A stretch of DNA of 61,162 nucleotides, the filler included, from Deltaproteobacteria bacterium (lineage in GTDB: Bacteria > JACQOV01): the NCBI GenBank assembly GCA_016202395.1. It is 4 parts of 4 records of this genome, joined end to end, with 100 filler letters (N's around TTAATTAATTAA, not from the genome) between each part and the next. Parts side by side here need not be neighbours in the genome. Positions count along the whole stretch, not along the records: positions 1 to 29,523 come from JACQOV010000011.1; 3 more parts are not named here. One strand, given 5' to 3'. A program made the translations under genes and the position numbers. Positions 1 through 58,740 of the stretch are shown piece by piece; position 1 is the stretch's first letter; each line of letters starts with the position of its first letter. The notes under the pieces were generated by a model. It saw only the letters and a list, made by a program, of their open reading frames with translations, was not told the origin of the DNA and made no database searches.

Positions 1-57
1 ATAGCAGATAGCGTTTAGCGTATAGTTTTACTTGCCTAAACGCTATACGCTAACAAG

Positions 58-960
58 ATGAATGCTTATGCCTTAATTATGGCGGGGGGGGAGGGGACTC
101 GGTTTTATCCTCTTTCGACTCCAGAGAAGCCAAAGCAATTTTTGAATCTTTATGGTCACGCGAGTTTGATTCAGCACACCTTTGGTCGCGTTCAGCCGAT
201 TTTCGGAGATTCTCAAATCTGGGTTGCAACGAATGAGCGTTTTATCCCTTTAGTTCAAGAGCATCTTCCGAAGATTTGTCTGCGTCAATTAATTGGCGAA
301 CCGATCAAGAAAAATACAGCCCCTTGCATTGCTCTGGCGGCCTACCTTATTTCATCTGTCAATCCGGAGGCCGTTATGGCGGTGTTCCCTGCAGATCATT
401 TTGTTGCGGACGAGGAGCAATTTAGAAAAACAATTTTGAAAGCGATTGAAGGAGCCAGCGACCAAAAGAAGTTAATTACCTTTGGAATCCGCCCCTCCTG
501 GCCTTCGGCCGAATATGGTTACATTCGATGTGGGGCCTCTTTTTTGGAGGATTCTTTTCGGGTGGTGGATCGATTCGTTGAAAAGCCAAACTCTAAATTA
601 GCTCAAGATTACATCAAGGAGGGGAACTATCTTTGGAATAGTGGAATCTTTGTTTGGAGAGCCGATGCCATTCTTCATGAGATCGAAAATTATTTGCCCC
701 GAACATTTAATTTATTGCAATCCCTTTCTGTAAAAAATGGGGCGCTCTCTCAAGAGGATCTTCATCGATTTTTTAATCAGGTGGAATCTGTTTCGATCGA
801 TTATGGTGTTTTAGAACGTTCAAAGAATGTGCTGGTGTTGCCTGTCGATTTTCGGTGGAGTGATCTGGGCTCTTTTGAGGCTTTAAAAAGATTGGCAGAC
901 CAAAAGGAGATTGAGTTAAGTCCAGAAGCCCTTTCCCACATTCAACGAGGGGTCCGATGA
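58..960 (+). CDS. manC: Mannose-1-phosphate guanylyltransferase (GMP domain only)
   Basis: IMAGGEGTRFYPLS..KPKQFL, KNTAPCI, PADH, FVEKP, WNSGIF, SIDYGVLE and WSDLGS motifs. Confidence 0.92.
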   Translation: MNAYALIMAGGEGTRFYPLSTPEKPKQFLNLYGHASLIQHTFGRVQPIFGDSQIWVATNERFIPLVQEHLPKICLRQLIGEPIKKNTAPCIALAAYLISSVNPEAVMAVFPADHFVADEEQFRKTILKAIEGASDQKKLITFGIRPSWPSAEYGYIRCGASFLEDSFRVVDRFVEKPNSKLAQDYIKEGNYLWNSGIFVWRADAILHEIENYLPRTFNLLQSLSVKNGALSQEDLHRFFNQVESVSIDYGVLERSKNVLVLPVDFRWSDLGSFEALKRLADQKEIELSPEALSHIQRGVR

Positions 961-1301
961 AAATCAACAAACCTTGGGGGAATGAATGGATTTGGGCTAA
1001 GACGGATCGGTATGTTGGGAAGATTCTCACCATCCGTCAATCCCATCGTTTGTCGTATCAGTATCATAACACGAAAGAAGAGACGATCTATCTCATGAAA
1101 GGGGAGATGGATCTCGAATACGAAGAAAATGGGGTTCGCAAGACTCTCCGACTGAAAGAAGGGCAAAACTTTCACATCCCTCCCAGAATGAAACACCGCA
1201 TGATTGCCGTTACCCATTGCCAGGTGGTCGAGGTCTCTACACCGGAGCTCGATGACGTCGTTCGCCTTGAAGATGAATACGGTCGTACCAAGCCTTCCTA
1301 A
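957..1301 (+). CDS. Cupin, mannose-6-phosphate isomerase type II C-terminal-like
   Basis: KPWG.E, LSYQYH.KEET, HRM and EVSTPELDDVVRLED motifs; ATGA overlap with the upstream gene. Confidence 0.85.
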   Translation: MKINKPWGNEWIWAKTDRYVGKILTIRQSHRLSYQYHNTKEETIYLMKGEMDLEYEENGVRKTLRLKEGQNFHIPPRMKHRMIAVTHCQVVEVSTPELDDVVRLEDEYGRTKPS

Positions 1302-1326
1302 AGGTGGACATCTTATAACTTATTGA

Positions 1327-1368
1327 AGTAATCGAATCTCCGCCCTTTAGGGCGGAGATTCGATTACT
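1327..1368. repeat. Perfect palindrome, 20-bp arms, with an IS200/IS605-end-like core
   Basis: agtaatcgaatctccgccct-tt-agggcggagattcgattact. Confidence 0.85.
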
Positions 1369-1369
1369 C

Positions 1370-2677
1370 ATGGATTGGCTTGGCGGACAGCCCACCATTG
1401 TTCAACTCCCTACGGAAGTTGCGGGGAGGATTCCGGATTATTCTTATCTTCAATTCCAAAATGGGTATTTTTATGCACTGACGGAGGAAGGGGATCTCAG
1501 CACGTTTGCAATCTGTGGGAACTCGATCCTCTTGACGGATGAGTTGAAGGATCTGGTGGCTTCTGAACACCAGATCGTCGCGGCTCGGTTCTTCAATGAT
1601 TGGCTCTATTTTAATGATAACGATCCTAAGAAAAACGGCTATGAAACCAATGTCATGGGGGCCATTGACTTGTCCACTCCTGCGATCCCTGCGGTGTATG
1701 GAACCATCAGCCTCCCCGGAGATACGTTCGACTTTATCCAGGATGAGGATTTTCTGTGGAGTTTTGGATTGATCACGGTGCGATCCGAACCGACCTTGTA
1801 CTCCTTAGGGAAGGTTTCTCTTTTTACGGAAAGGATTGAGGAGGTCGATCACTTGCTACTTGGAACGGATGGCAGACAATTCTCCTCTGCGTCTCGGTCC
1901 GACGATCAGGTGTTCCATTTTGATGAGAATCTTCATCGGCTTTTCTTCCCTTATACGGTTTCTGGATTCTTGAATGGGATCGGTTGGGACACGGAGTACC
2001 GCCTCTCGGTGATAGATCGAGTGGATCAAGATTTAATGGAGGTGGTGAGCGAGGACTTTCCAGTGTCTGTAGAACGATCGATCAGTTACGATTCTTCTAA
2101 CTTTGTCACTTTCTCCGATGCGTTTCTCTACCAGTTCCAAAAGATGGGGGAGGAATGGGAACGCGTTCCGTTGCTCGAAGCCCGTGTCCCCTCCTCGGTC
2201 TTTTTCGTTGAGGTAACAAACTGGGCTATCGTTACAACAGGGAAATCCGAGGGGTATCTCTTGGAGGTGTACCGTAAAGACAGGCTTTATTCGGGAGATT
2301 TGTCCGACCGGCAGCTTGTTCCTCGTGGAGAAAGCCATGTCTGTTTGGCGCCGGAGATCTTCTACACCGGTAATGTGGTGTTTGTTGTTCAAGAACAGGA
2401 AGGGATCTTTGTGACAACAGAGGATTGTCCTGATTCATTCTCCCCCGATCAACTCCGATTCATCGGATTTGAGGTTTCGAGCGATGGAAAATTGAAGGAG
2501 TTGGATCCCGAATCGCTTTGGGAGGTCTATGAGATTGTTCAGCGTCCTTATTGTGTCCAGGATTTGACGAACTGTGATGGGACTTTGGTTGAAGAGAGAA
2601 GGGTCGATGATGCGGAAGCCACCTGTTTTTCGGAAGAGGGTTATTGGAACCTGGCTTATCAGTGTTCAACTCGATAA
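1370..2677 (+). CDS. Beta-propeller-domain protein, possibly 5'-truncated
   Basis: 435-aa acidic ORF; GTISLPG and S.ASRSDDQVFHFD..RLFFPY resemble secreted beta-propeller proteins; no signal peptide. Confidence 0.55.
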   Translation: MDWLGGQPTIVQLPTEVAGRIPDYSYLQFQNGYFYALTEEGDLSTFAICGNSILLTDELKDLVASEHQIVAARFFNDWLYFNDNDPKKNGYETNVMGAIDLSTPAIPAVYGTISLPGDTFDFIQDEDFLWSFGLITVRSEPTLYSLGKVSLFTERIEEVDHLLLGTDGRQFSSASRSDDQVFHFDENLHRLFFPYTVSGFLNGIGWDTEYRLSVIDRVDQDLMEVVSEDFPVSVERSISYDSSNFVTFSDAFLYQFQKMGEEWERVPLLEARVPSSVFFVEVTNWAIVTTGKSEGYLLEVYRKDRLYSGDLSDRQLVPRGESHVCLAPEIFYTGNVVFVVQEQEGIFVTTEDCPDSFSPDQLRFIGFEVSSDGKLKELDPESLWEVYEIVQRPYCVQDLTNCDGTLVEERRVDDAEATCFSEEGYWNLAYQCSTR

Positions 2678-2853
2678 GAAGGGGCTCATTTTTCATGACA
2701 CAAAGTGTGTCGATCTCTTGTCCTGGTGGGTTGAACTGGACCTCACCCGCCAGGGCGAGGGGATTTTGGCGCTGTGTCAAAAAGATACAGAAAAGGCAAT
2801 TTTTGCGTGTATTCAGAGAGTTCACGGGGAACTTAGAATAAAAAGTCTTTATT

Positions 2854-2896
2854 AATCAATAGGTTATAAAAAGGTAGCGATGGCACGGCTATTGCA
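2854..2896 (+). promoter_or_regulatory. IHF site plus sigma54 (-24/-12) promoter
   Basis: AATCAAtaggTTA (2854-2866) fits WATCAANNNNTTR; TGGCACGgctaTTGCA at 2881-2896. Confidence 0.8.
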
Positions 2897-2932
2897 TGAC
2901 TAATAAGGGGGCAGGGGGGGAAGGAATGAACG

Positions 2933-5900
2933 ATGGGAGCAAGAATTAGCCAGAAAAGACCGATCCCATGGGTATCCATAGGGTTTTTCAGCATCGGCCT
3001 CGCTATAGCCTTTTGGTTTCAAGGATGTGGAGGATGTGATGATGACTCTTCAGAAATTGCCGAGTCTCTTTCTGTGAGTGACGTGGATCCTGCCTGTATC
3101 AAAATAGACACTCTTTCGACTTTATCCATCCAAGGATCTGGCTTCTCTTCCGACATGGTGGTTGAATTCCAATCGGGTGAGCTTTCCATGAATCCCACCT
3201 CCGAAAGTTTGGTTTCGTCCCAAGAGTTGAACGTGGAGATCACTTGTCCTGGTGAGGGAGCTTATGATCTTACGATTGTAAACGGGACGGAAACAACCCA
3301 AAAAAGTGGCATTCTAGAGTGTGCTTTAGAATGTGAATCCTCTCCACCGGGTCCGATAGTTTCAACATTGACTTACGTTCCTCAAGAAGGGACGGGGGGA
3401 ACGACAGTGCGTGTCATTGGGACGGAGATTGGAACGTATGGGCTTCAAGTCGGTCCTGTGGAGGGAGGGGAACTCGACCCCGAATATACTGTAATTGTAG
3501 AGCGGACTCAGAAGGTTTTAGACGATTTGCAAGCAAAATTTACACTGCCTGAAAATGAGACTTTCGGTGGAGTTCCTGGAGGGGAAGTGACATTAGGGAT
3601 TCAATGGGTTGATGCCAATGGAGAAGTTCTCCAAACAGAATATCAGGGAGAAACACTGGATTATCTGGAGTTTAACTACACCGTTCCTGAGGATGCGCTA
3701 ACCGATGTCGTGGTCCATTCTTTTACGGCTTGGGCCACTTGTGGTGATGTTGGGAAGATCCAAGGAACCGGTCTCAAAGATCTCGGACTTCAAATTGGGC
3801 CCCTCCAAGATGAGGACCAGGATGGGGATCTCGAGGTTACAAACGCTGTCGAATTCCAAAGGAAAGAGCTCTTGGCAGCAAATTGGCAAGTGAAATTTAA
3901 ATTTGATGAGGACAACTGCCCTAGTTTCCTCCCCGATTCTATCCTGGAGAATCTTCCAGAGGATCGAGTGGTGAAACTAGGGATGCAACTCGTCGATGAG
4001 AACGGGAATGTCGCAGATCTCACCGGCGGAACCGATGAAGGGACCCACGGTGATTATCTGGCGCTCGATTTTCAAGTTCCTCTCGTTGCGGATCGGAGCG
4101 TTTCTATCACCAATTACACCAACAGTGGGACCTATGGAACAAAAGTCAAGATCTTTGGTTCGGATCTCAGTAATCTTACGATGAAGGTGGTGGCTCTCAA
4201 TTCATCGGGGTCTGCTGTTGGGGAATATGTCTCAGTGACTCGTGATGAGAAAGATTGGGCTTCGAAGTGGTATGCCACTTTTGAGATGCCTTCTTTTGAT
4301 GATTTAGGCTCTGTAGGAAGTACGCTCACCGTCGCCATCGGTTTTTTCGATGAGGATGGAGACCTTGTGGATGTCACCTATGACGGGCAAACCAAAAAAT
4401 CGCTCTCCTTTACTTACACCATCGGTGATCCTGGTGTGGTGATTAGCTCCTTCACCACCTGGTCTACATGCGGCGAATGGGTAGAGATCGCAGGAGTCGA
4501 TCTTGGAGATTTTGGGGTTCGAGTAGGACGGGTTCAGAATGGGGTCGTTGTGAATCCAGTCACTTTTGAAAGAAAAGAGTTGCTCCTTAAAAACTTTCAT
4601 ATCAAGATATACTTTGAAGAGGATAATTGTCCTGACTTTTTGGGTTCAACCACAGCGGGTGAAACACTGGATTTGGGAATCGAGCTTACCAGTGGCAGTA
4701 GCGCCGTGGGGATCAAAGATAGAAGCCCCGATTATCTCCCTTTGACTTTTCGAGTGCCGGATGCGGAGGCGGGTCCATCGATCTCCATCACCCGGTACAC
4801 CAGCAGTGGGACCGAAGGGGATACGGTCAAGGTTGTGGGGACGGGCCTAAAGGACTTAAGTGTGGAACTTTGGGTTTTGAATTCTGAAACGGGGGATATT
4901 GATGAAACTTCTGTAACACGCACGGAGCTGTTGCTCCCCAATCTCCAAGCTAAGTTTGAGATGCCCTCCTTCAACGATTATGGAGATGCGGGTGAGACCG
5001 TGGAGGTCCATCTCTTTTTCTTTAATGAAGAGGGGGAACAAGTCGATCTTACATTCGAAGATGCCGATGGTGACGGGAACAAAGATACTCAAAAATCGCT
5101 CCCCTTCTCGTATCAAATTCCTCCAGAGAGTGGAGCCACAATTTCATCCTACGATGGTTGGGCCACTTGTGACGATCTTATTACCATTGAGGGCTCTAGT
5201 TTCCAAGGCCTCGAGGTGCAGATCGGGAAAATTTTAAGTGGGGTGGTCACCGATCCAGTAGGATTCAAGCGAAGAGAGATCCTGTGGAAAGATAAACAGA
5301 TCAAGGTCAAGTTCGATGACAAAAATGATCAGACCTGCCTCGATTTCTTAGGGGACTCCGCCCCGGGAGAAACAATAGAGTTTGGCATCCAACTAATCGA
5401 TTCGAATGGGGACCCGGTCAATCTCATTAATGCAACCAACGAGCCAACTCATGGAGACTACTTCTATTTGTATTTCAGGGTTCCTGATGAGGATCCTATC
5501 GATGTCGTCCCGGTTCTGAAGTATGAACCGACCCGGGGGAGTGCAGGGGACAAGGTCAAGATCGTGGGGAGTGGTCTCAAAGATCTTGAAGTGGAGGTTT
5601 GGGCGGTGGATTCGGATGGAAACAGTCAGGCCACTCCGATAGAAGAAAGGGAGGAGGCCGATCTTCTTTCAAATTATGTGATCCAATTTACGATGTCATC
5701 ACTGTCGCTTTACGATGAGACAGGGGAGCCAGGAGAGGAATTTCAAGCAGGAATCCTCTTCTTTACGGCCGAAGGGGATCCTGTTCATATGGAGTATGAT
5801 GACGATGGCGATGGAGTGGCAGAGGCGCGCAAGTCGTTGCATTTTACTTACGTCATTCCACCGGAGGAGGCGATTCCTGTTTCCGAGTATACGAGTTGGG

Positions 5901-6847
5901 CGACTTGTGGCGATTATGCGGTGATTGAAGGGACGGGGCTAAAGGGTCTGGAAGTTCGTGTCGGAAGGGTTACCGATATCGCGGCAGGAAACACACAAGC
6001 CTTAATCGAGTTTGAACAGAAAGAGATCCTCGATTCCAACTCCAAGATCAAGATCAAATTTGATGAAGGGAACTGCCCCGATTTCTTAGGGACGACCACG
6101 CCGGGGGAGACATTAGATCTTGGTTACCAACTGACCGATGAGGATGGCGACGCGCTGACTCTCACGGTGGGAGAGGGAACCGGAAATTACCTTCCTTTTC
6201 AGTTCAAAGTTCCGGAAGAGGTTATCGTCTCAGGGCCGAGTGTCACGCTCGACAAATATGAACCGACCTCTGGAACCGGTGGAGATCAGATTTTGATCCA
6301 AGGGAGGGATCTCAAGGATCTCGTTGTCAAAGTGGTTACATTGGATTCGAGTGGGGAGTGGGTTGGAACGGTGGCCACTCGAGAGGAGAACGTTCTTCTT
6401 TCGAATCGATATATGAAGTTTGCAATGCCCTCGTTTGATGTCTATGGAGATCCTCTTGAGACCATCGATGTCCGAATCGTTTTCTGCACCGATGCCTCGT
6501 GCGATAGCGCTGAGGAACAAGTGGACATCAAGTACGATTTCGATGGCGACGGTGAAACAGAAGTTCAGAAATCGCTCCTATTCGAATACTCGATTCCCAT
6601 CAGTTTAGGAGATCTCGTGGATGATCTCAATGGAATTCTGGAGGATGTCCGGGATCGCCTGGACGATTTTGATGTCTCTGATCTAAACGAGTTTTGGGAA
6701 GATTTTGTGGATAATCACACAAAAGAATTGGAGGGTAGAGGTGTCACTTGCGAAGATTGCAGTGCGCAACCCAATCTCTCCTGTTTAGGAACTTTTTCGG
6801 CACCGAATTCCAGCACGGTCTCCTTTACTCCCGATTCCGATTGCTAG
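2933..6847 (+). CDS. Large acidic surface (lipo)protein with tandem IPT/TIG-like Ig domains
   Basis: N-terminal hydrophobic segment followed by FQGC; about 10 repeats of roughly 115-125 aa; DxDGDG motifs. Confidence 0.75.
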   Translation: MGARISQKRPIPWVSIGFFSIGLAIAFWFQGCGGCDDDSSEIAESLSVSDVDPACIKIDTLSTLSIQGSGFSSDMVVEFQSGELSMNPTSESLVSSQELNVEITCPGEGAYDLTIVNGTETTQKSGILECALECESSPPGPIVSTLTYVPQEGTGGTTVRVIGTEIGTYGLQVGPVEGGELDPEYTVIVERTQKVLDDLQAKFTLPENETFGGVPGGEVTLGIQWVDANGEVLQTEYQGETLDYLEFNYTVPEDALTDVVVHSFTAWATCGDVGKIQGTGLKDLGLQIGPLQDEDQDGDLEVTNAVEFQRKELLAANWQVKFKFDEDNCPSFLPDSILENLPEDRVVKLGMQLVDENGNVADLTGGTDEGTHGDYLALDFQVPLVADRSVSITNYTNSGTYGTKVKIFGSDLSNLTMKVVALNSSGSAVGEYVSVTRDEKDWASKWYATFEMPSFDDLGSVGSTLTVAIGFFDEDGDLVDVTYDGQTKKSLSFTYTIGDPGVVISSFTTWSTCGEWVEIAGVDLGDFGVRVGRVQNGVVVNPVTFERKELLLKNFHIKIYFEEDNCPDFLGSTTAGETLDLGIELTSGSSAVGIKDRSPDYLPLTFRVPDAEAGPSISITRYTSSGTEGDTVKVVGTGLKDLSVELWVLNSETGDIDETSVTRTELLLPNLQAKFEMPSFNDYGDAGETVEVHLFFFNEEGEQVDLTFEDADGDGNKDTQKSLPFSYQIPPESGATISSYDGWATCDDLITIEGSSFQGLEVQIGKILSGVVTDPVGFKRREILWKDKQIKVKFDDKNDQTCLDFLGDSAPGETIEFGIQLIDSNGDPVNLINATNEPTHGDYFYLYFRVPDEDPIDVVPVLKYEPTRGSAGDKVKIVGSGLKDLEVEVWAVDSDGNSQATPIEEREEADLLSNYVIQFTMSSLSLYDETGEPGEEFQAGILFFTAEGDPVHMEYDDDGDGVAEARKSLHFTYVIPPEEAIPVSEYTSWATCGDYAVIEGTGLKGLEVRVGRVTDIAAGNTQALIEFEQKEILDSNSKIKIKFDEGNCPDFLGTTTPGETLDLGYQLTDEDGDALTLTVGEGTGNYLPFQFKVPEEVIVSGPSVTLDKYEPTSGTGGDQILIQGRDLKDLVVKVVTLDSSGEWVGTVATREENVLLSNRYMKFAMPSFDVYGDPLETIDVRIVFCTDASCDSAEEQVDIKYDFDGDGETEVQKSLLFEYSIPISLGDLVDDLNGILEDVRDRLDDFDVSDLNEFWEDFVDNHTKELEGRGVTCEDCSAQPNLSCLGTFSAPNSSTVSFTPDSDC

Positions 6848-6857
6848 CCATTCGTAA

Positions 6858-6886
6858 CGTCATCCCCGCGGAAGCGGGGATCCAGT
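6858..6886 (+). repeat. CGTC-type REP palindrome (family A)
   Basis: cgtcatccccgcggaagcggggatccagt; same family as 40470-40564 and 54380-54850. Confidence 0.9.
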
Positions 6887-6941
6887 AACCCATCGAAAGA
6901 ACTGGGTTTGTGTTTTGTAGGCGAACTGTGTAGATTTAGCC

Positions 6942-7766
6942 TTGATGAATAGTGTCGTCATTTTGACCGGCGCAGCCAGTGGCATTGGGCTTCATTTGGC
7001 GGGTGTTTTTGCCTCGAGGGGCTACCCTCTTTTGGTCACCGACATCCACGAACAGATCCTTCAGGAACAGGCTGAGAAGCTCCACTGGAGGTCGCCACAG
7101 GTTTTAATCCAAAAATTAGATGTGCGGGATCGTGAACAGTGGAAGCAAACGATCGATCTTGCGGTGCAAACGTGGGGGCGGGTCGATATCTTAATGAATA
7201 TCGCGGCTTATCTGAGGCCCGGTTTCATCCATGAAATTGACGCGAGTGAGGTGGATCGGCATATCGATGTGAATATCAAAGGGGTCCTCTATGGCACTCA
7301 GGCCGCCGCTCGCCAGATGATTTTGCAAGGGAAGGGCCACATCATCAACATCAGTTCTTTAGCGGGGATTGCGCCGACCCCCGGAATCTCACTTTATAGC
7401 GCCTCGAAATTTTCGGTGCGCGGTTTTTCTTTGGCAGTTGCCGATGAACTGCGTCCTCATGGCGTTTATGTTACGGTGGTTTGTCCGGATGCCGTCCAAA
7501 CGCCGATGCTCGATCTTCAGTTGGGTTATAGAAAAGAGACCGCGCTCGTCTTTTCAGGGCCTCATCCTCTTCGTGTTCAAGATATCGAAAGGGCCATTTT
7601 TGAAAAGGTGATCCCCAAAAGGCCGTTAGAAGTTCTATTGCCTGCCCATCGAGGGTGGCTCGCGAAGCTGGCGAATCTTTTCCCATCTCTTTTAAAAACG
7701 CTCGGTCCGATTTTCCGAAAGAGAGGCTTATCCAACCAAACAAAATATGAACGGGGTGAACTGTGA
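6942..7766 (+). CDS. SDR-family oxidoreductase
   Basis: TGAASGIG, NISS and YSASK motifs. Confidence 0.92.
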   Translation: MMNSVVILTGAASGIGLHLAGVFASRGYPLLVTDIHEQILQEQAEKLHWRSPQVLIQKLDVRDREQWKQTIDLAVQTWGRVDILMNIAAYLRPGFIHEIDASEVDRHIDVNIKGVLYGTQAAARQMILQGKGHIINISSLAGIAPTPGISLYSASKFSVRGFSLAVADELRPHGVYVTVVCPDAVQTPMLDLQLGYRKETALVFSGPHPLRVQDIERAIFEKVIPKRPLEVLLPAHRGWLAKLANLFPSLLKTLGPIFRKRGLSNQTKYERGEL

Positions 7767-8818
7767 AAAAAATCGCTCTAGGACTCATTGGGTTTCTTCT
7801 TTGGAGTTCTGTGGCTACAGCCCACGTTTACTATTCTCATACAGACCATTTAAATTCGGCGCAGTTGATCACAAATGAGGTGGGAGAAGTCAGCCAATTG
7901 GAAAGCTATACCCCTTTCGGCGAGATTTTGCAGGAAAAGGGCTGGGGTGATGGGCCCACTACTTATCTCTACACCCATCAAGAACTCGACCGCTCCTCGG
8001 AGCTCTACTACTATGGCGCCAGGTATTATGATCCAGTGACGGCGCGGTTTGCGAGCGCGGATCCTGTTCTAATGAATCTGCCTTATAGTTATGTTCTCAA
8101 TAATCCGATAAAATACACCGATCCAAACGGTTTAGAGGAAGAGGAAAAAACTCAGCCTCCTCCCCCCTCGTGGCGGGAGAGTTTACGAAATAGATTGGGC
8201 GCGACCTTTCCACCGTTCGGTCCTCCAGGGGAGTTGCCGGCGGTTCCAAATTCATGGGGTGGAGCTTACAACACCTCTCTCCCAGGTCCTGTTGTTTCCC
8301 CTCCAAACGGGAGACCTGGCGTGAAAACCGTCAGGAGTGCGGTTGATCGCATCCTGCCCATTTATTACGGGACAGAGCCTGTGACAAAAGAGGCTATTGA
8401 TCAGGCCTTAGGTGAGCTCATGAGAATGAGCTTTCAGATCGTGCCTTATCCTTTGGGTTCTCCTGAAGGGGAAGGAAGCGAAAAAGATACAGATGTAACG
8501 TGGATACGCAAACGATTTTACCATCCCATTAATCCCGAGGCGCGACAACTCCGGACGGACATCTACAATTACCTTGTGCAAGAGAGTCGGGATGCGGGAA
8601 CCGATCTGGATCCCTTATCCACGGTGCACGATCCTTTGGGAGTGAATAACCCAAAAGAATTTCAGAAAAAATTTCTTCATTTCGTCATGTCCCTTCATAA
8701 AGATATTGGTCGCTATCGGGATAATCCCGCGGGTCTTCAGGGGGATTTACAAGCACGGTCCGCCCTGGATATTGCTAACAGGTTACAAGAATTAACGGAA
8801 TCGAGCGAAGGAGGATGA
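7763..8818 (+). CDS. Signal peptide + RHS-associated core + variable C-terminus (mini-Rhs 1)
   Basis: MKKIALGLIGFLLWSSVATA|HVYYSHTDHLNS..YTPFGE..YYYGARYYDP..RFASADP..NNPIKYTDPNGL. Confidence 0.9.
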   Translation: MKKIALGLIGFLLWSSVATAHVYYSHTDHLNSAQLITNEVGEVSQLESYTPFGEILQEKGWGDGPTTYLYTHQELDRSSELYYYGARYYDPVTARFASADPVLMNLPYSYVLNNPIKYTDPNGLEEEEKTQPPPPSWRESLRNRLGATFPPFGPPGELPAVPNSWGGAYNTSLPGPVVSPPNGRPGVKTVRSAVDRILPIYYGTEPVTKEAIDQALGELMRMSFQIVPYPLGSPEGEGSEKDTDVTWIRKRFYHPINPEARQLRTDIYNYLVQESRDAGTDLDPLSTVHDPLGVNNPKEFQKKFLHFVMSLHKDIGRYRDNPAGLQGDLQARSALDIANRLQELTESSEGG

Positions 8819-8843
8819 GATGCGCGCAACGAGGGAGGTCTTC

Positions 8844-9674
8844 ATGAAAAACGGACAGGTTTACCGAGGGACGCAGGATTACATCGCCTCGGAGGATTTG
8901 CAGAGGGTGGTCAATGTCTCTTTAGCCATCGGTCGCCCACTTCTCCTTAAGGGAGAGCCGGGGACAGGGAAAACGCTCCTTGCCGCCTCCATTGCCAAGT
9001 CCATTCATCGTCCTTTATTGCGATGGAATGTCAAGTCGACAACCCAAGCTCAAGAAGGGCTCTGCGTTTACGACACCATTCAACGTCTCAACGATAGTCG
9101 TTTTGGCGACGGCGATGTGAAAGACATTAAGCGTTACATCAAGCTCGGAAAACTGGGGGAGGCATTTGTTTCGGAAGAGCCGGTGGTCCTTCTGATCGAT
9201 GAGATTGACAAAGCTGATCTCGAGTTTCCAAACGATCTCCTGGCCGAACTGGATGAGATGCGTTTTTATATTCCAGAGACGAAAGAGGAGATCGTGGCCA
9301 AACATCGCCCGATGGTCGTGATTACCTCCAATTCAGAAAAAGAGCTCCCCGATGCGTTCCTGCGGCGTTGTGTTTTCCATTACATCGCTTTCCCAGACAC
9401 TGCGCTCATGACGGAGATCGTCAAAGTCCATTTCCCCGATCTCGAGAAGAGGCTCTTGGAGGCCGCTCTTCAGAAATTTTATGAGATCCGCTCTGGGTCG
9501 CACTTGAGAAAACCCCCTTCAACCTCGGAGCTGATTGACTGGCTCCATGCCCTTTTGGCCATGGGGATCTCTTCCAAAGATATTTTGCAGGAGATTCCAC
9601 CGCTTCTGGGCTGTTTGATTAAGAAAACTGAAGACATGCGGATCTCCAGCAACCCTCTTAGAATGACATCCTGA
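8844..9674 (+). CDS. MoxR-family AAA+ ATPase
   Basis: GEPGTGKT, LLIDEIDKAD, FPNDLL and LPDAFLRRC motifs; RBS GGAGG before ATG 8844. Confidence 0.92.
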   Translation: MKNGQVYRGTQDYIASEDLQRVVNVSLAIGRPLLLKGEPGTGKTLLAASIAKSIHRPLLRWNVKSTTQAQEGLCVYDTIQRLNDSRFGDGDVKDIKRYIKLGKLGEAFVSEEPVVLLIDEIDKADLEFPNDLLAELDEMRFYIPETKEEIVAKHRPMVVITSNSEKELPDAFLRRCVFHYIAFPDTALMTEIVKVHFPDLEKRLLEAALQKFYEIRSGSHLRKPPSTSELIDWLHALLAMGISSKDILQEIPPLLGCLIKKTEDMRISSNPLRMTS

Positions 9675-9686
9675 GTCCTGTAAGCC

Positions 9687-10856
9687 ATGTTATTGCCCTT
9701 TCTTTACACACTTCGGGCTCATAAAATTCCTGTAGGGACGCAGGAGTGGCTTGCGTTGATGGAAGCCCTTTGCAAAGATACGGCGAACTCTTCCCTCACC
9801 GATTTTTATTACATCGCTCGATCGATTCTCGTAAAGTCCGAGGCCCTTTTCGATGCCTTTGATCAAGCTTTTCTAGTTTGCTTTAAAGGGAAAGAGGACG
9901 ATTTTAATCTTAAAAAAGAGCTTTTGGAATGGCTCGACCGCAATGTCGATCCCTTGCAGCGCCCCAAGATGCCTTTCGATATCCCGCCGCTTGCTTTGGA
10001 AGAGTTGCGGCGGCGGTTTTTAGAACGTCTCAAAGAGCAAAACGACGAGCATCACGGAGGCTCTCATTGGATAGGGACGGGAGGAACTTCCCCCTTGGGT
10101 CACTCGGGGGCCCATCCTTCAGGGATTCGTATAGGAGGGGCTGGAGGAGGACGTTCGGCGGTGCAGGTGGCCGAGGAGCGGCGTTTTGCCAATTATCGCT
10201 ACGATCGAGTTTTGGATATTCGCCAGCTTCAAGTGGCTCTCAAACGCCTTCGGAAGTTGGAACAAACAGGACCCAAAGAGGAACTTCAATTAGAGGAGAC
10301 CATTGATAAGACGGCTAAAAATGGTGGGGAGATAGATCTTATTTTTGACTCTCCCCACAAGAACATCTCGGAGCTTCTTCTCTTGATGGATACCGGTGGG
10401 AGTATGGACCCTTATGCCGAATTAGTAGAGACCCTTTTTTCCGCCGCGCATGCCTCCAAGCATTTCAAAACGTTTCGTCATTTTTACTTCCATAATTGTA
10501 TTTATTCTCGGGTTTATACCGATATGGTCCATGGGAAATACGTTGCGCTCGAAGAGCTTTTTAGAAACCACGGCAAGAACTTTAATGTGGTGCTTGTGGG
10601 GGATGCTTGCATGAGCCCTTACGAGTTGGTTTATGCCGGTGGATCGATAAACTACTGGGAGAATCCGCTCACCCCTGGAATCGACTGGTTCCAACGGTTC
10701 AAGCAGCACTATCCGCGATCCATTTGGCTCAATCCCCAGGAACCGCGCACCTGGAATCATCCCACTATTGCATCGATTGGGAAAGTTTTCAGGATGTTTC
10801 CCTTAACCGTTGAAGGGATTACAGAGGCCATCGATCATTTACGCGGTATTTTTTAA
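9687..10856 (+). CDS. VWA-domain (CoxE-like) MoxR partner protein
   Basis: HGGSHWIGTGGTSP, MIDAS-like DTGGSM, YFHNC and VGDA motifs. Confidence 0.88.
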   Translation: MLLPFLYTLRAHKIPVGTQEWLALMEALCKDTANSSLTDFYYIARSILVKSEALFDAFDQAFLVCFKGKEDDFNLKKELLEWLDRNVDPLQRPKMPFDIPPLALEELRRRFLERLKEQNDEHHGGSHWIGTGGTSPLGHSGAHPSGIRIGGAGGGRSAVQVAEERRFANYRYDRVLDIRQLQVALKRLRKLEQTGPKEELQLEETIDKTAKNGGEIDLIFDSPHKNISELLLLMDTGGSMDPYAELVETLFSAAHASKHFKTFRHFYFHNCIYSRVYTDMVHGKYVALEELFRNHGKNFNVVLVGDACMSPYELVYAGGSINYWENPLTPGIDWFQRFKQHYPRSIWLNPQEPRTWNHPTIASIGKVFRMFPLTVEGITEAIDHLRGIF

Positions 10857-29523: not shown

Positions 29524-29623
29524 NNNNNNNNNNNNNNNNNNNNNNNNNNNNNNNNNNNNNNNNNNNNTTAATTAATTAANNNNNNNNNNNNNNNNNNNNN
29601 NNNNNNNNNNNNNNNNNNNNNNN
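29524..29623. other. Artificial contig linker
   Basis: N run containing TTAATTAATTAA (stop codons in all six frames). Confidence 0.97.
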
Positions 29624-40469: not shown

Positions 40470-40564
40470 TGTCATTCCCGTGCAAACGGGAATCCATGTC
40501 ATTCCCACGGAAGTGGGAATCCAGTCTATCGAAAGAACTGGATCCCCGCTTTCGCGGGGATGAC
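40470..40564. repeat. Cluster of three family-A REP palindromes
   Basis: gtcattcccgtgcaaacgggaatcca, gtcattcccacggaagtgggaatccag, and inverted ctggatccccgctttcgcggggatgac. Confidence 0.92.
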
Positions 40565-41978: not shown

Positions 41979-43151
41979 TCAATCCATGTCATCAGCTAAA
42001 AATGGTTCGTCCGACAAGCGAATGCTTCCCCAGTTCCTTTGTCGTTGGATATAATCGGGCTGTCGCATAGTCCCTCTAGGTCCTCCGAAGTATTCTACAT
42101 CACTGGGAGAGAGACTTCTCTCTCGTGAGAGCAGCTCTGCTGGATTTGAGCTTTCAAGGTACGCTTCTTCTGGAATTGGAATCCCTGATAATTTTTCCGC
42201 AGCTTTTGCTGCTAAATATCGATGGCGGCTTAGGACCACTCTTTCACCTGTTTCCTCTATTCTGTACACAAGAACAGGGCTTCTCTGCCAGTCCCATTCT
42301 CTACGCAGCATTTCTAATGTAAATCGAGCAATCTTGCCTCGGTGCACGGGCCATCCTGTTTCTCCCGTAAACGGCGCTAGGTCTTGTTCACTAAAAAAAT
42401 TTGTAACAGGTTCACCTAAGTTGCCGAGTTTTACTTCTATTTCTTTTACTGAAGGCTCAGCCGGTGGATTTGTTTCGGAGCCTTCAGAGCTTGCCATCTG
42501 AGATGCTGCCCATGCGGCTGCTGCGGCACTTCCAACGAGAATCCCTGCTTTAGCGAGCCCCCCGAGGCTAATCTTTGAGCCGGCCACTATAGCCGGACCA
42601 CATCCAATCCCCGTATAACATCCCGCAACAACCACCACTCCTGCGGCCAAAAGAGTTCCTCCTACTACCGCATAGGCGGTGGGACCGGGGCCATTACGAT
42701 TAGAGAGATCGGGGAGGTCGCCTGGCCCAAAATTAACAGGATGATATTTCTTTTCTCGTTCATCCCTTCCGGAAGGATCGATGAGCCGGATAGGATTATT
42801 CGAAACGTAGCTGTAGGGAAGATTTTCCAAAACGGGATCGCGGGAAGTAAATCGGCTCAAAGTAAAATCGTAATATCGGGCGCCGTAGTAGTGGAGAGCG
42901 GATTCGGGATCGAGTTCTTGGCCGGTGTAGAGATGGTTTGTTGGGAGATTGCTGGCAGTTTCTTGGATGAGTTCTCCGAAAGGGGAGTAAGAGACAGATT
43001 CGATAACATCCCCATTTTGATCTGTAGTTAAATTTACGGAACCCAGATGATCCCCATAAGAATAGAGAACGCCGCCGTTCGCTGGCACGATGTTGGCCAA
43101 GACAGCCAGCCCCATTAAAAACAACAACTGAAATTTTCCTTTATAAATCAA
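41979..43151 (-). CDS. Mini-Rhs 2: signal peptide + RHS core + hydrophobic region + ParB-like C-terminus
   Basis: ..IVPANG|GVLYSYGDHLGS..SPFGE..YTGQELD..YYGARYYD..RFTSRDP..DPSGR; RBS GAGGAG before TTG. Confidence 0.9.
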   Translation of the reverse strand: MIYKGKFQLLFLMGLAVLANIVPANGGVLYSYGDHLGSVNLTTDQNGDVIESVSYSPFGELIQETASNLPTNHLYTGQELDPESALHYYGARYYDFTLSRFTSRDPVLENLPYSYVSNNPIRLIDPSGRDEREKKYHPVNFGPGDLPDLSNRNGPGPTAYAVVGGTLLAAGVVVVAGCYTGIGCGPAIVAGSKISLGGLAKAGILVGSAAAAAWAASQMASSEGSETNPPAEPSVKEIEVKLGNLGEPVTNFFSEQDLAPFTGETGWPVHRGKIARFTLEMLRREWDWQRSPVLVYRIEETGERVVLSRHRYLAAKAAEKLSGIPIPEEAYLESSNPAELLSRERSLSPSDVEYFGGPRGTMRQPDYIQRQRNWGSIRLSDEPFLADDMD

Positions 43152-50944: not shown

Positions 50945-51964
50945 TCAATAAGGGGCGATTTCTGGGTCTGATATGGTTTGCAAGGCTCTCAGGAGGTCCG
51001 ATAAGGGGGCGTTCAGAGAGTCGGTGTCCGTTGTTCGCAATTCATAGAAGAGGGTCTCTACCGTACTCGGGTCGATACCTCCTTCCCGATAAGCGATGGG
51101 CCCGTCTTTTCTCACAACGGCCGAAAAGCTTACGCGTCCAATTACAGGGTCCCCGCCATTCCCTGTGCCGCCAGCTGCATAAAAGTTCGTTGATAGAAGT
51201 CTGGGATTAGGATCGAGCTCAAATTCTTTTCCTTTCGGTTTGAGCGTTAAAGTGAGCGGGAAGAGGTCGTCGTCCAATGTGCGACGGCCGGGTGTAAAAC
51301 GGACTTCGATGCTTTCGATCGACCCGCCTGATGGGGCACTGGCCTTGATGATATATGGGATGCGGGGGATTTTTTCAATCATCTCTTTTCGTGAATATTG
51401 GAAGATAGCGCCTGCAGCAGGCCGATATCCCTGAGGCGGTTCCTTCTCGTTCCTGTTGAACCATCTCGCAGGATTAAGGTATTTGAGGAAATTAAGGATA
51501 GAGTGCCCCGAATCGGGTTCGTCGGAGGCCCATCCTTGTGGATCCGTCCAACGCAGAGGGTTGTTTTGGACGTAGAGATAGGAGTCTGCTTCCATGGGTT
51601 GGCGGAACAGGAGAGGGTCGACGCTCAAGAATCGGCTCAAAATAGGATCCTGGTATCGGGCTTCGTAATAGTAAAGTTCAGCCTCGCGATCGAGATCTTT
51701 GCCGGTGAATTGAAAGGAGACAGCCCCCTCACCCCAACCCTCTCCCCTCTGGGGAGAGGGCGAAGGGTGAGGGGTTAAAATCTCGCCAAATGGGAAATAT
51801 TGAGTTGCCTGGGCCACAGAGCCGGTTGTGTTTGTGACGACAGCCGTGGATCCAAGGTGATCGGTGTGCAGGTAGAAAGTTTCAGCGGAGGCCATGCCTG
51901 CCTTCCCTAAAACCCCTACAAGAATGATTATCGCTATTTGGAGAAGAGTTTTCATAAGCTTCAT
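50945..51964 (-). CDS. Mini-Rhs 3: signal peptide + RHS core (with in-frame palindrome insertion) + variable C-terminus
   Basis: ..GMASA|ETFYLHTDHLGS..PFGE..FTGKDLD..YYYEARYQDP..RFLSVDP..DPQGW. Confidence 0.9.
   Translation of the reverse strand: MKLMKTLLQIAIIILVGVLGKAGMASAETFYLHTDHLGSTAVVTNTTGSVAQATQYFPFGEILTPHPSPSPQRGEGWGEGAVSFQFTGKDLDREAELYYYEARYQDPILSRFLSVDPLLFRQPMEADSYLYVQNNPLRWTDPQGWASDEPDSGHSILNFLKYLNPARWFNRNEKEPPQGYRPAAGAIFQYSRKEMIEKIPRIPYIIKASAPSGGSIESIEVRFTPGRRTLDDDLFPLTLTLKPKGKEFELDPNPRLLSTNFYAAGGTGNGGDPVIGRVSFSAVVRKDGPIAYREGGIDPSTVETLFYELRTTDTDSLNAPLSDLLRALQTISDPEIAPY
51725..51774. repeat. CCCTCACCC..GGGTGAGGG palindrome (family F), inside a CDS
   Basis: cccctcaccccaaccctctcccctctggggagagggcgaagggtgagggg. 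Confidence 0.9.
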
Positions 51965-51987: not shown

Positions 51988-52067
51988 TGTCATTGCGAGG
52001 ACCCTGAGCGGAGCGAAAGGGGCCGAAGCAATCCCCTGGAGATTGCTTCGCTTCGCTCGCAATGACA
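51988..52067. repeat. Family-E REP doublet at a contig end
   Basis: tgtcattgcgag / ctcgcaatgaca with internal cgaagcaatc / gattgcttcg. Confidence 0.85.
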
Positions 52068-52167
52068 NNNNNNNNNNNNNNNNNNNNNNNNNNNNNNNNN
52101 NNNNNNNNNNNTTAATTAATTAANNNNNNNNNNNNNNNNNNNNNNNNNNNNNNNNNNNNNNNNNNNN
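52068..52167. other. Artificial contig linker
   Basis: N run containing TTAATTAATTAA. Confidence 0.97.
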
Positions 52168-52582: not shown

Positions 52583-53482
52583 TCATATACTTCCCCTCAC
52601 CCCAACCCTCTCCCCTTTGGGGAGAGGGAGTAAGGGTGAGGGGGATATCTCCCCTTGAGCAACGATCGTGTCTCTAATCCCCTCTTTCGATAGAGCCTCT
52701 TGCGCCTTTTTAGCCGTCTCCTCCGAAGAGAAAAGCCCAAAAAACGTGGATCCAGATCCGGACATTCCAGCAATCTCAGCTCCACAATGCCGCAATTGCT
52801 CTTTCATTTCTTTCAACTCCGGCCACTGCTCCGTCACCCAAGGCTCAAAATCATTAATAATATAAGATTTTAAGTCGCTCATCCCGTGGTAAATTTGGGG
52901 CAGGGTGACTGGCTCTCTTTCTTTTGTCAACCGAAGAGCCCCGTAGGCCTGCGCCGTTGAAACAAATATCTTAGAAAAGGCTAAAAGATACCAAAGACTG
53001 GGAAATTTGTCGATGGGCTCTAGCTCCTCTCCAATCCCTCGAGCGATAGCAGGAGAACCCCCTAGAAAAAAAGGGAGATCGGCCCCCAACTCTCGCGCGA
53101 TCTTTTGGGGGGAAAGATCGAGTGGAATCCCCCACAAAGAGGCGAGCCCCCGCAACACCGCTGCCGCATCGCTGCTTCCTCCCCCCAATCCTGCTCCGAC
53201 GGGGATCCTCTTTTGAAGCTCGATCTCAACTCCTCCATCGATTTTAAAGCGCTCAAAAAAATACTCTGCCGCGCGGTAAGCCAGATTCTCACGGTTGGAA
53301 GGGACCACCGACGGCGCCACCTTCAAGAGAACCCCCTTCACCCTCTTGCGAAGAAGAACCTCATCCCCCCATGAAAGCCGTTGCATTAAGCTCAAGATCT
53401 CATGGTAGCCATCCGACCGTTTTCGAAGCACTTGAAGGATGAGATTCACTTTCGCAGGGGCCAGCAGTTTGATTGCTTCCAT
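52583..53482 (-). CDS. ispE: CDP-ME kinase
   Basis: APAKVNL, GYHEI, IPVGAGLGGGSSDAAA, GADLPFF, NDFE and MSGSGS motifs. Confidence 0.96.
   Translation of the reverse strand: MEAIKLLAPAKVNLILQVLRKRSDGYHEILSLMQRLSWGDEVLLRKRVKGVLLKVAPSVVPSNRENLAYRAAEYFFERFKIDGGVEIELQKRIPVGAGLGGGSSDAAAVLRGLASLWGIPLDLSPQKIARELGADLPFFLGGSPAIARGIGEELEPIDKFPSLWYLLAFSKIFVSTAQAYGALRLTKEREPVTLPQIYHGMSDLKSYIINDFEPWVTEQWPELKEMKEQLRHCGAEIAGMSGSGSTFFGLFSSEETAKKAQEALSKEGIRDTIVAQGEISPSPLLPLPKGERVGVRGSI
52593..52643. repeat. Family-F palindrome encoding the IspE C-terminus
   Basis: cccctcaccccaaccctctcccctttggggagagggagtaagggtgagggg. Confidence 0.9.
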
Positions 53483-54379: not shown

Positions 54380-54460
54380 CTGGATTCCCGCTTCCGCGGG
54401 AATGACAACAAATACGTCATCCCCGCGTCCACCGTCATCCCCGCGAAAGCGGGGATCCAG
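54380..54460. repeat. Family-A REP cluster downstream of the GIY-YIG gene
   Basis: 54380-54406 (reverse), partial 54415-54427, 54433-54460 (forward). Confidence 0.92.
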
Positions 54461-54793: not shown

Positions 54794-54850
54794 CTGGATC
54801 CCCCTTTTCAGGGGGATGACGTTCTGGATTCCCGCTTCCGCGGGAATGAC
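54794..54850. repeat. Two family-A REPs upstream of the GIY-YIG gene
   Basis: ctggatcccccttttcagggggatgacg and ctggattcccgcttccgcgggaatgac. Confidence 0.92.
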
Positions 54851-57696: not shown

Positions 57697-57796
57697 NNNN
57701 NNNNNNNNNNNNNNNNNNNNNNNNNNNNNNNNNNNNNNNNTTAATTAATTAANNNNNNNNNNNNNNNNNNNNNNNNNNNNNNNNNNNNNNNNNNNN
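57697..57796. other. Artificial contig linker
   Basis: N run containing TTAATTAATTAA. Confidence 0.97.
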
Positions 57797-58008: not shown

Positions 58009-58740
58009 ATGAGGAAGTTGATAAGCTTGCTACTTTTTGTGACGTTGAATACGCCTCTCTCAGAGGCAGAGGTTGGGTATCTGCATGGGGAACACCTCCA
58101 ATCCACCGCTGTGATCTCGGATTCGCGAGGCGGGGTTCAAGAAGCGCTCCAGTATAGTCCTTTTGGCGAGAGGATTTCTTTTGCGCCAGCGCAGAGGGTT
58201 TCCTATCAATTCACGGGTCAAGAGGTTGATTTTGAATCTGATCTCTACCATTACGGTTTTCGTGGTTATGACCCGTCGTTGAGTCGCTTCTTAAGTGTGG
58301 ATCCGGTTTTAGTGGAGCTTCCTTATGCCTATGTTCGAAATAATCCGGTTCGTTTATTCGATCCGGAGGGGCATCAGGCCGTGGGCCCCGACGATGATGA
58401 CGCACGATTTAGGGAAGGAGTTTTGAAGCGAGAGGAAGTTTTGAGAAGGCTAGAGAGGGAAAAGGAGGCCGCCTTGGGAGGTCGGGAGCCTCTTCTGAGG
58501 GAACTCTCTCGAAAACGGTTGGAGGAGAATCGTGGGAACAGGCTCGCTGAATTAAAAGACTTGCTGAGAATGTACGGAAGAATTCAGGAAAGGAGCGGAC
58601 GCAACGTTAGAGGCGCAACTAAAGGTATCGAGAGACGGATTAAAGCCGTTGAGGCCGAACAATACGAGGATTGGGAAGAGGCATCTCCAAAAATTCGTTC
58701 AGAGGTCCCTTATTCTGGTTTTTGGGGATCGGGGAGATAG
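58009..58740 (+). CDS. Mini-Rhs 4 (frame stays open past TAG to 59010)
   Basis: ..PLSEA|EVGYLHGEHLQS..SPFGE..FTGQEVD..YHYGFRGYDP..RFLSVDP..DPEGH. Confidence 0.88.
   Translation: MRKLISLLLFVTLNTPLSEAEVGYLHGEHLQSTAVISDSRGGVQEALQYSPFGERISFAPAQRVSYQFTGQEVDFESDLYHYGFRGYDPSLSRFLSVDPVLVELPYAYVRNNPVRLFDPEGHQAVGPDDDDARFREGVLKREEVLRRLEREKEAALGGREPLLRELSRKRLEENRGNRLAELKDLLRMYGRIQERSGRNVRGATKGIERRIKAVEAEQYEDWEEASPKIRSEVPYSGFWGSGR

Follow-up and report, generated by a model that had tools for sequence, protein, structure and literature searches.

Mini-Rhs proteins with a putative signal peptide, a bare Rhs core, and hypervariable C-terminal cargo in a groundwater deltaproteobacterium

The stretch of DNA analysed here, referred to as the window, comprises 61,162 nucleotides (nt) from the draft assembly of a Deltaproteobacteria bacterium (GCA_016202395.1) and joins four contigs, separated by N spacers at positions 29524-29623, 52068-52167, and 57697-57796. 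It encodes four short proteins of the Rhs family, each composed of a putative Sec-type signal peptide, an Rhs core of about 100 amino acids (aa), and a C-terminal cargo. An original prediction, made from the sequence alone, had placed the four genes, g1-g4, on three of the four contigs, and all four open reading frames (ORFs) were confirmed, with intact frames of 351, 390, 339, and 243 aa. The same prediction had proposed a common plan of a signal, a core that follows it almost immediately, and four unrelated C-termini. We recover this plan, with signal-like segments that end 1-4 residues ahead of the core.

The g1 gene (7763-8818, plus strand) starts with GTG and encodes a 351-aa mini-Rhs protein with a helical cargo, recognized by TIGR03696 at aa 49-124 with an E value of 5.8e-21. 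Its putative signal, aa 1-20 (7763-7822), contains an MKK start, a hydrophobic run, and a candidate cut site ATA/H as read by eye, and is predicted by AlphaFold2 (AF2) as a helix at residues 2-18. The Rhs plug, a putative aspartyl-autoprotease core, was delimited to aa 21-124 (7823-8134) by TIGR03696, alignment, and a profile search of the PDB. It contains the codon of D100 at 8060-8062 and the DPNG motif at 8120-8131. The g1 cargo, aa 125-351 (8135-8815), is formed by a Pro-rich linker and a helical domain without a known family. The g2 gene (41979-43151, minus strand, TTG start, 390 aa) is divided into a putative signal (43074-43151), a core (42768-43073), and a cargo (41982-42767), the last composed of a Gly-rich hydrophobic stretch followed by a domain without an assigned family. 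The g2 start is placed differently elsewhere, as a gene caller set the start of P0122 12 codons later. The g3 gene (50945-51964, minus strand, 339 aa) has a putative signal at 51884-51964, a core at 51533-51883, and a cargo at 50948-51532, and the protein has a weak match to PF03527 in Pfam (E 0.0037). The g4 gene (58009-58740, plus strand, 243 aa) encodes a putative signal at 58009-58068, a core at 58069-58374, and a coiled-coil cargo at 58375-58737, and ends in a TAG codon at 58738-58740.

All four proteins pass the TIGR03696 (Rhs_assc_core) check that the original prediction had suggested, with 63.8-76.2 bits against a cut-off of 32.5 (E 1.5e-17 to 2.1e-21); the match spans aa 55-128 in g2, 56-144 in g3, and 49-122 in g4. 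A Pfam scan found the RHS_repeat domain (PF05593) in none of the four. The proteins are 29-34% identical to one another in pairwise comparisons. Thirty-three of the 35 invariant alignment columns lie within aa 24-123 of g1, and the alignment contains no similarity downstream of the DPxG motif. When a profile of g1-g4 was compared with the PDB, the matched region was restricted to the last ~110 shell residues of Rhs, TcC, teneurin, and SGS1 chains in 28 of 28 matches.

The N-termini of g1-g4 carry two Lys or Arg residues followed by a hydrophobic run of 10-16 residues, as read by eye. They end in small-x-small sites (ATA/H, ANG/G, ASA/E, and SEA/E), located 1-4 residues ahead of the first aromatic residue of the core. 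The signal stretches of g1 and g4 are both rendered as helices by AlphaFold. Because n-, h-, and c-regions and agreement with the -3/-1 rule can be recognized by eye in all four proteins and in relatives, we infer that the N-termini are Sec-type signal peptides.

The four proteins belong to a large group. A near-length search with g1 returned 678 relatives, and a core profile search over 1.84 billion representatives identified 389,489 proteins with a core at E <= 1e-3. Mini-Rhs proteins were defined by a script as having a Met start, a hydrophobic N-terminus, a core within 60 aa, and a length of <=500 aa. The best 150 of the 389,489 representatives include 54 mini-Rhs proteins, 27 core-first proteins without a signal (orphan type), 45 fragments or other forms, and 24 long proteins. 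A looser rule applied to 256 proteins gave 73 positives, one of them false, which leaves about 72 metagenome proteins with the plan. The members originate from Deltaproteobacteria-labelled metagenome-assembled genomes (MAGs; P0002, P0005, P0127, and P0128), and the family reaches DPANN archaea (P0136, from a Nanoarchaeota archaeon) and Patescibacteria (P0051, which additionally has a LysM domain). In databases, the members are annotated merely as 'RHS repeat-associated core domain-containing protein'. A scan of contigs for YYGARYYD mostly recovered canonical Rhs proteins and Bacteroidota orphans, with the signal-type short form present only in loci L004, L026, and L074. The short frames of G039, considered as mini-Rhs genes in a phylum-wide search around G001, proved to be signal-less orphans. 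The UvrB protein encoded in the window is 61-64% identical to those of five candidate genomes, among which there is no close relative.

Nine positions are invariant in 76 of 76 aligned members: Y49, P51, G53, R85, D98, Y106, P113, D118, and G121 in g4 numbering. D98 belongs to the RF.S.DP motif and D118 to the DPxG motif, with a spacing of 20; D100 and D120 of g1 fall in the same two columns. The catalytic pair is D1324/D1346 in RhsA, as given in excerpts of PMC8765631, and D1369/D1391 in Tse15, according to part of entry 8uxt. Judged by motif and spacing, D98/D118 fit these catalytic pairs.

The C-termini are exchanged at a fixed point, immediately past DPxG. Among pairs of members with signal and core at least 65% identical, 48 of 54 have C-termini without detectable similarity; the N-terminal identity of such pairs reaches 93% in P0010/P0136, 91% in P0159/P0173, and 90% in P0182/P0190. 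The 68 cargoes of at least 40 aa form 57 clusters. Known toxin domains occur in few members, Ntox8 (E 7e-25) in one of 76 and Tox-REase-9 in one of 76, and P0028 has weak matches to PT-TG and a ParB-like nuclease. Part of the g1 cargo is shared only with P0002 (61% of g1 covered, 40% identity). The g1 cargo has no Pfam family, no PDB sequence match, and no usable match in the ESM Atlas, and no longer proteins bearing it were found, which is weak evidence. Sequence searches of the PDB with the g1, g2, and g3 cargoes returned nothing meaningful. An assignment of the g2 cargo to ParB_N/MafB was rejected, as the Atlas scores of just 0.78-0.82 are below a trustworthy level, and its resemblance to the ParB-like tail of P0004 is not significant (BLASTP E 0.089).

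A quick tree of 153 cores, built on few columns and with many forks left open, places the four window cores inside a clade of 33 mini-Rhs proteins that contains no long protein. Three of the window cores have well-supported outside partners: g4 with P0131 (support 99), g3 with P0130 (97), and g2 with P0156 (97). The N-terminus of g3 is 66% identical to that of P0130, and their C-termini are unrelated. Since the outside partner differs from one window core to the next, the window paralogs appear to be old and kept. The mini layout occurs in at least three separate clades of the tree, and Patescibacteria mini-Rhs proteins nest among cores of long Patescibacteria proteins.

The frame of g4 requires separate consideration. 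P0131, which is 68% identical to g4, has no stop at the position of the in-frame TAG. According to tblastn, the similarity between the two proteins runs on in the same frame to about 58983, over ~80 codons, and the frame beyond the TAG stays open as an 87-aa ORF at 58747-59010. The same-frame continuation at 58741-59010 (plus strand), identified by tblastn of P0131, encodes a hydrophobic helix and a Cys-rich tail. The g4 gene may be interrupted by the TAG, which could be a nonsense mutation, a sequencing error, or a site of read-through.

The in-frame stop of g4 could be taken as a sign that g1-g4 are decaying, functionless remnants of deleted full-length Rhs genes. A single internal deletion would suffice to create the layout, and the signal of one relative, P0053, is 67% identical to that of a neighboring shell gene. 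We consider this explanation highly improbable, because the frame is intact in three of the four genes, the motifs are invariant across sequences of ~30% identity, each paralog has its own outside relative, and the layout recurs in separate clades. The original prediction had argued against fragments from the identical junction of signal and core, and its argument is strengthened here, as 76 of 76 aligned members preserve the junction together with the two Asp motifs, and cargo is exchanged right past DPxG. The g1-g4 proteins are members of a real, widespread polymorphic family and are not fragments.

The core-coding sequence also leaves a trace in metagenomes. The organism itself, with an identical g1 sequence, occurs in four groundwater metagenome runs of one study, with no variant inside g1. 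Only where g1 encodes its core does the summed depth of these runs increase, by a factor of 5-9, which indicates that many related cores are present in the community. The metagenome contigs either break off or depart from the window sequence at about 7998-8036 and 8109-8138, two sites that fall within the sequence for the g1 core (region 7837-8170). The core acts as an assembly repeat, and this may explain why g3 and g4 lie at contig ends.

The genes in the vicinity of g1-g4 are mostly of housekeeping type. The g1 gene belongs to a tight run at 6942-10856 that consists of SDR, g1, MoxR-like AAA, and CoxE-type VWA genes; the end of the SDR gene and the g1 start share 4 nt, and the MoxR-like AAA gene begins 2 nt past the g1 stop and precedes VWA_CoxE. 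At 2933-6847, two genes ahead of g1, lies the gene of a 1304-aa lipoprotein-like protein with many ~90-aa repeats, a weak IPT/TIG match (E 9e-6), and no YD repeats. The g2 gene is flanked by a divergent QueF gene and, downstream, by TolC-like OEP and AcrB genes. The g3 gene is convergent with an alternative complex III operon. The convergent gene, which has no Pfam match, sits after ActD and cytochrome c genes and plausibly encodes ActF. A PilZ gene is convergent to g4. The starts of g3 and g4 are 103 and 212 nt from contig ends, and both of these stretches are non-coding.

No part of an Rhs shell is encoded near these genes. There is no gene within 100-200 nt upstream of g1-g4 that could encode a shell. 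A tblastn search of the whole window with 24 long Rhs proteins gave 134 high-scoring segment pairs, 127 of which lie inside g1-g4. Five of the remainder are core matches stretched 12-93 nt upstream, of which the g2 stretch crosses a TAA stop, and two are chance matches (E 0.004 and 0.023). Accordingly, no YD repeats, in-frame or frameshifted, were detected by tblastn near g1-g4 or anywhere else in the 61 kb. The original prediction had named frameshifted YD repeats upstream of the genes as a finding that would speak against it, and the window contains none.

No immunity-like small ORF directly follows g1-g4, the next genes being those of the MoxR-like AAA protein, the TolC-like OEP, and the two convergent neighbors. 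The original prediction had considered the lack of an immunity gene a property of the family. The claim is valid for the four window genes and for six of six copies in G306, a Woesearchaeota MAG, and fails for the family, as in 8 of the 18 relatives examined the stop is followed, 1-63 nt later, by an ORF of 107-185 aa on the same strand. An ORF of at least 100 aa occupies the immunity position in five of five Patescibacteria copies, against none of six in G306. The missing immunity gene is not a family-wide trait.

Several repeat elements lie in or near the genes. A palindromic element lies in-frame in the core loop of g3 (51725-51760, minus strand; peptide PSPSPQRGEGWGEG). The palindrome at the DNA level, 51738-51760, has two further copies in the window, with none expected by chance. 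The repeat, CCCTCTCCCCnnnGGGGAGAGGG, has copies at 51725-51760, 52593-52628 (3' end of an IspE-like gene), and 61044-61079, and reads in-frame as PSPQRGEGWGEG in the g3 core loop and, in the IspE-like protein, as part of its C-terminus. Peptides derived from such elements, of at least three types (PxPQRGEgwGEG, PPFxKGGxGG, and VIARE..DRSNLPTNH) occupy the loop between PFGE and YxFTG in about 25 of the 76 members. We take these in-frame loop elements to resemble the in-frame palindromic elements of Rickettsia. The 103 nt that separate the g3 start from the contig end are taken up by a long inverted repeat at 51990-52067 (tgtcattgcgag...ctcgcaatgaca). Some relatives have a peptide of this kind of element (VIARE...SNLPTNH) in their core loop, and g2 retains the tail of the peptide, 'SNLPTNH'. 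A second repeat family is intergenic (6859-6885, 40538-40564, 54380-54460, and 54824-54847) and reads VIPAEAGIQ or, on the opposite strand, DPRFRGDD. Over 6835-7001, the four groundwater runs reach a summed depth of 35 to about 900, compared with about 5-11 at baseline, which points to the second repeat element being common to many community genomes.

The layout can be compared with that of known Rhs-related proteins. The window proteins have the core, the motifs, and the hypervariable tail of Rhs proteins, and lack YD repeats and an immunity gene. Sec-dependent full-length Rhs proteins, such as WapA and the 'T2SS' (type II secretion system) and 'TcdB/TcaC' classes described in parts of PMC3482391, similarly begin with a signal and end with a core and a polymorphic toxin. 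However, their signal and core are separated by an SpvB/propeller/YD shell of 900-3000 aa, in place of which the window proteins have 1-4 residues. Releasing-peptidase toxins, for example those with PT-HINT in the same excerpts of PMC3482391, resemble the mini-Rhs proteins in placing a constant self-cutting module before a swappable toxin. In contrast to them, the module of the mini-Rhs proteins is the Rhs aspartyl core, so far seen working only inside a cocoon. In the full text of the literature searched, we found no description of a signal fused to a bare core, or of a shell and plug split over two genes outside Tc toxins; a previous description was another finding that the original prediction had named as contrary to it.

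Orphan rhs-CT genes and short Rhs genes of Enterobacteria, Snodgrassella, and Bacteroidota likewise have their start at the core or close to it and retain a complete C-terminal toxin. In the available portions of bioRxiv 10.1101/2024.02.26.582050 and PMC5727410, the core of orphan rhs-CT genes is described as a recombination joint for C-terminal displacement, and short Rhs genes that combine a partial core with a full toxin are presumed not to be expressed. The window genes could be such silent cassettes, storing cargoes and core homology for recombination instead of being expressed as proteins of their own; swapping of cargo at the core is evident, and g4 contains a stop. The orphans lack a secretion signal and lie behind full-length rhs genes together with immunity genes, whereas g1-g4 have a putative signal, are solitary and scattered among housekeeping genes, and lack immunity genes. 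The g1-g4 genes also have start codons of their own and conserved signal-like N-termini with small-x-small sites, features that would be lost in a silent cassette. Moreover, g1 is translationally coupled within the SDR-MoxR operon, and relatives keep their signals while the cargo differs. We therefore regard a role as silent cassettes as improbable.

It is also conceivable that g1-g4 are non-toxic surface or periplasmic proteins that are never cleaved, whose core only assists folding or anchoring, comparable to the uncut plug of teneurins, and whose C-termini perform housekeeping or adhesive tasks. The lack of an immunity gene, the housekeeping neighborhoods, the coiled-coil cargo of g4, and the operon of g1 with MoxR and VWA genes are consistent with such proteins, and passages of PMC8765631 describe the same domain in teneurins as a plug without cleavage. 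This explanation is improbable, given the invariance of both Asp residues and of DPxG in 76 of 76 members. Hypervariable cargo on near-identical N-termini is a signature of conflict systems, and some relatives have known toxin domains and immunity-like ORFs.

The structure of g4 was predicted by AF2 from the 76-sequence alignment with a mean predicted local distance difference test (pLDDT) score of 75. The model is composed of a signal helix, β-hairpins at aa 24-88 with pLDDT of 51-84 per 10-residue block, and a confidently predicted helical coiled-coil cargo (helices 129-216, pLDDT about 90). When the model was compared with the PDB by Foldseek, 19 of the first 20 rows were Rhs, Tc, or teneurin plugs. 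In this model, the free core is recognizable, yet not confidently folded alone. The AF2 model of g1, calculated from a 7-sequence alignment, has a mean pLDDT of 38.9 and was unusable.

We tentatively favor, at somewhat less than even confidence, the interpretation that g1-g4 are stand-alone, self-cleaving secreted pro-effectors in this genome. The layout of a Sec signal, an Rhs core of ~100 aa, and a hypervariable cargo is in our reading a new architectural variant of Rhs/Tc polymorphic toxins. According to the proposed mechanism, Sec would export the precursor, and signal peptidase I would cut it 1-4 residues ahead of the first core strand. The core would act as a constant pro-domain and a releasing protease, cutting itself past DPxG and freeing the cargo outside the cytoplasm without a YD shell. 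The cargoes would be effectors of several kinds, with a putative membrane-inserting function of the Gly-rich stretch that precedes the domain of g2, a coiled coil in g4, and unassigned folds in g1 and g3. They may be aimed at something that the producer lacks, so that no immunity gene would be needed. Their targets may be prey or host rather than kin, as the original prediction had proposed, although immunity-like ORFs follow 8 of the 18 relatives examined. A possible origin of the family is a secreted full-length toxin of the Rhs or TcB-TcC-like type from which the entire shell was deleted, bringing signal and core together; the signal identity between P0053 and its neighboring shell gene suggests such a loss.

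Genomes without a shell support the stand-alone interpretation. G306, with an assembly of 0.9 Mb, contains seven cores in frames of 275-480 aa on seven contigs. YD repeats are hit only twice in G306, on a single 2.8-kb contig with a core of its own, and G307 has two cores and no YD hit. Shell-free living looks possible, and the stand-alone model fits the solitary, shell-free state of the genes in the window, G306, and G307. In G306 (L124, L126-L130) and G309 (L131-L135), assemblies of ~0.9 Mb of the DPANN type, we observed six to seven scattered paralogs composed of a signal, the last shell strand, a core, and different cargoes. Their N-termini are nearly identical within each genome, and they make up a large share of these small genomes.

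Several points weigh against stand-alone action. A toxin freed in the periplasm of a two-membrane cell still needs an exit route. No description of cleavage by an isolated Rhs core was found in the literature consulted, and in the solved structures covered by parts of PMC8765631 the core spirals inside the cocoon. In the g4 model, the active-site stretch, aa 104-119, has pLDDT below 50. The best Foldseek row has an E value of 2.9e-3 and a root-mean-square deviation of 6.2 Å over 83 columns, and nothing in the PDB was found at E <= 0.001. The Pfam, Atlas, and PDB searches assign no known toxin family to any of the four cargoes, and g4 may be interrupted by its in-frame TAG. G306 holds one fragment with YD repeats and a core (L125), and the incompleteness of MAGs weakens the argument from genomes without a shell. 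Finally, three loci pair mini-Rhs genes with a core-less shell, as would be expected if shell and plug were separate proteins.

In these three unrelated loci, L123, L136, and L004, a gene for a signal, a core, and a cargo adjoins a gene for a signal-bearing YD shell without a core. L123 is a Patescibacteria-like metagenome contig of 6.2 kb (1-6230) that carries, on one strand, the P0028 gene, a 146-aa ORF, the P0053 gene, ORFs of 111 and 157 aa, and the start of the P0260 gene. The 2430-aa shell protein P0260 is composed of a signal, SpvB, FG-GAP, TcdB_midN, RHS repeats, and six fn3 domains. P0260 has no TIGR03696 match, and the DHLGS, YYGARYYD, and DPxG motifs are all absent from it. Its likeness to mini-Rhs proteins is limited to the signal peptide, which is 67% identical to that of P0053 over 33 residues. 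A core within the same protein and, after it, a C-terminal tail of about 150-235 aa are present in 110 of 120 long relatives of P0260, which follow the plan of Sec-dependent full-length Rhs proteins; P0260 is therefore a derived, split form. Homology between P0260 and its full-length relatives extends as far as aa 1741 ('KHIFAGNENVASI'), 7-10 residues ahead of the core start in P0261 and P0268, and this end coincides with the predicted start point of mature mini-Rhs proteins.

L136 belongs to the Patescibacteria MAG G310. At 523-7726, it encodes a 1930-aa shell with a signal, SpvB, FG-GAP, and RHS repeats and without a core, followed after 10 nt by a 346-aa protein with a signal, a bare core, and a cargo, and by a 107-aa ORF. 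In both Patescibacteria-like loci, L123 and L136, the mini-Rhs genes are trailed by small ORFs. L004, from an archaeal MAG (3-7029), encodes a core-less shell of at least 1938 aa with RHS repeats and LamG and, after 10 nt, a gene with a signal, the last shell strand, a core, and a cargo. Among five small genomes compared, one core-less shell accompanies five cores in G310 and one core in G308, and G309 has six cores and a doubtful shell only. The 1707-aa neighbor in L067, which has LamG and a sub-threshold RHS_repeat match (E 0.0067), was not counted as a shell.

These loci resemble TcB-TcC toxins, in which the cocoon is split over two genes and the C part contains the core, or autoprotease, and the hypervariable cargo. 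The C genes may lie far from B: in excerpts of PMC11067744, one TcB of Yersinia entomophaga packages TcC proteins from distant loci, and the accessible text of PMC7861908 reports orphan tcC genes. The L123 and L136 shells have the TcB domain set of SpvB, FG-GAP, and RHS repeats, to which L123 adds TcdB_midN. However, according to the same text of PMC7861908, 97.2% of TcC proteins are 851-1050 aa long and supply about a third of the shell. Their N-terminal RHS shell segment measures about 600-700 aa, whereas the window proteins, with 243-390 aa, have no shell residues. The window proteins therefore have neither the size nor the shell segment of TcC and, because of their putative signals and solitary positions, differ from orphans as well. 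Unlike TcB and TcC, both partners of the pairs described here have putative Sec signals, so that they would meet outside the cytoplasm. The tblastn search with long Rhs proteins found no TcB-type partner in the 61-kb window.

It is possible, and in our view only somewhat less likely than stand-alone action, that the mini-Rhs proteins are minimal C components: cartridges of plug and cargo, exported by Sec on their own, that dock into a core-less YD shell encoded elsewhere, as TcC completes TcB, with one shell serving many cartridges. The pairing of genes in three independent loci, the split of P0260 at the start point of mature mini-Rhs proteins, the five cores for one shell in G310, and the distant or orphan tcC genes argue for such docking, and the uncertainty of the AF2 prediction for the free core fits a domain in need of a partner. 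On the other side, the window has no YD coding and no shell candidate directly upstream of g1-g4, and the clade of 33 mini-Rhs proteins around the window cores includes zero long proteins. G306 and G307 contain mini-Rhs genes, and no core-less shell was detected in them. In addition, the assembly of a cocoon around cargo after export is without precedent, and the adjacency of genes alone is no proof of binding. That this bacterium, like the sources of L123, L136, and L004, runs a two-gene system, in which a shell and scattered cartridges are exported separately by Sec and assembled outside the cytoplasm so that one shell serves a changeable arsenal, appears rather unlikely.

The original prediction had guessed that the cartridges dock in trans into a separately encoded YD shell. 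Core-less shell genes do adjoin mini-Rhs genes in L123, L136, and L004, but the window itself has no shell gene. As far as genome comparisons can tell, the two-gene model has better comparative support than the stand-alone model; the docking guess gained such genomic support in other lineages and remains a proposal for this genome.

By the common view, the cocoons of Rhs, Tc, and teneurin proteins wrap around their cargo as a single folding unit, and short Rhs proteins are usually dismissed as silent spares. The family described here is a conserved form with a putative signal, reduced to the plug, or autoprotease, and the cargo, with many copies in small-genome episymbionts (DPANN and Patescibacteria) and in this groundwater bacterium. 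The class is missed by current screens, since TcC screens demand 851-1050 aa and Rhs screens for the type VI secretion system call short forms orphans. If the core cleaves alone, it would be a minimal self-releasing module of ~100 aa for secreted effectors. Should it instead dock into a shell that is exported on its own, the view of cocoon loading would change, as a cocoon could be closed and loaded in trans after export. Docking would also explain a large toxin repertoire in tiny genomes with one costly shell gene. The family opens dozens of uncharacterized cargo families to testing.

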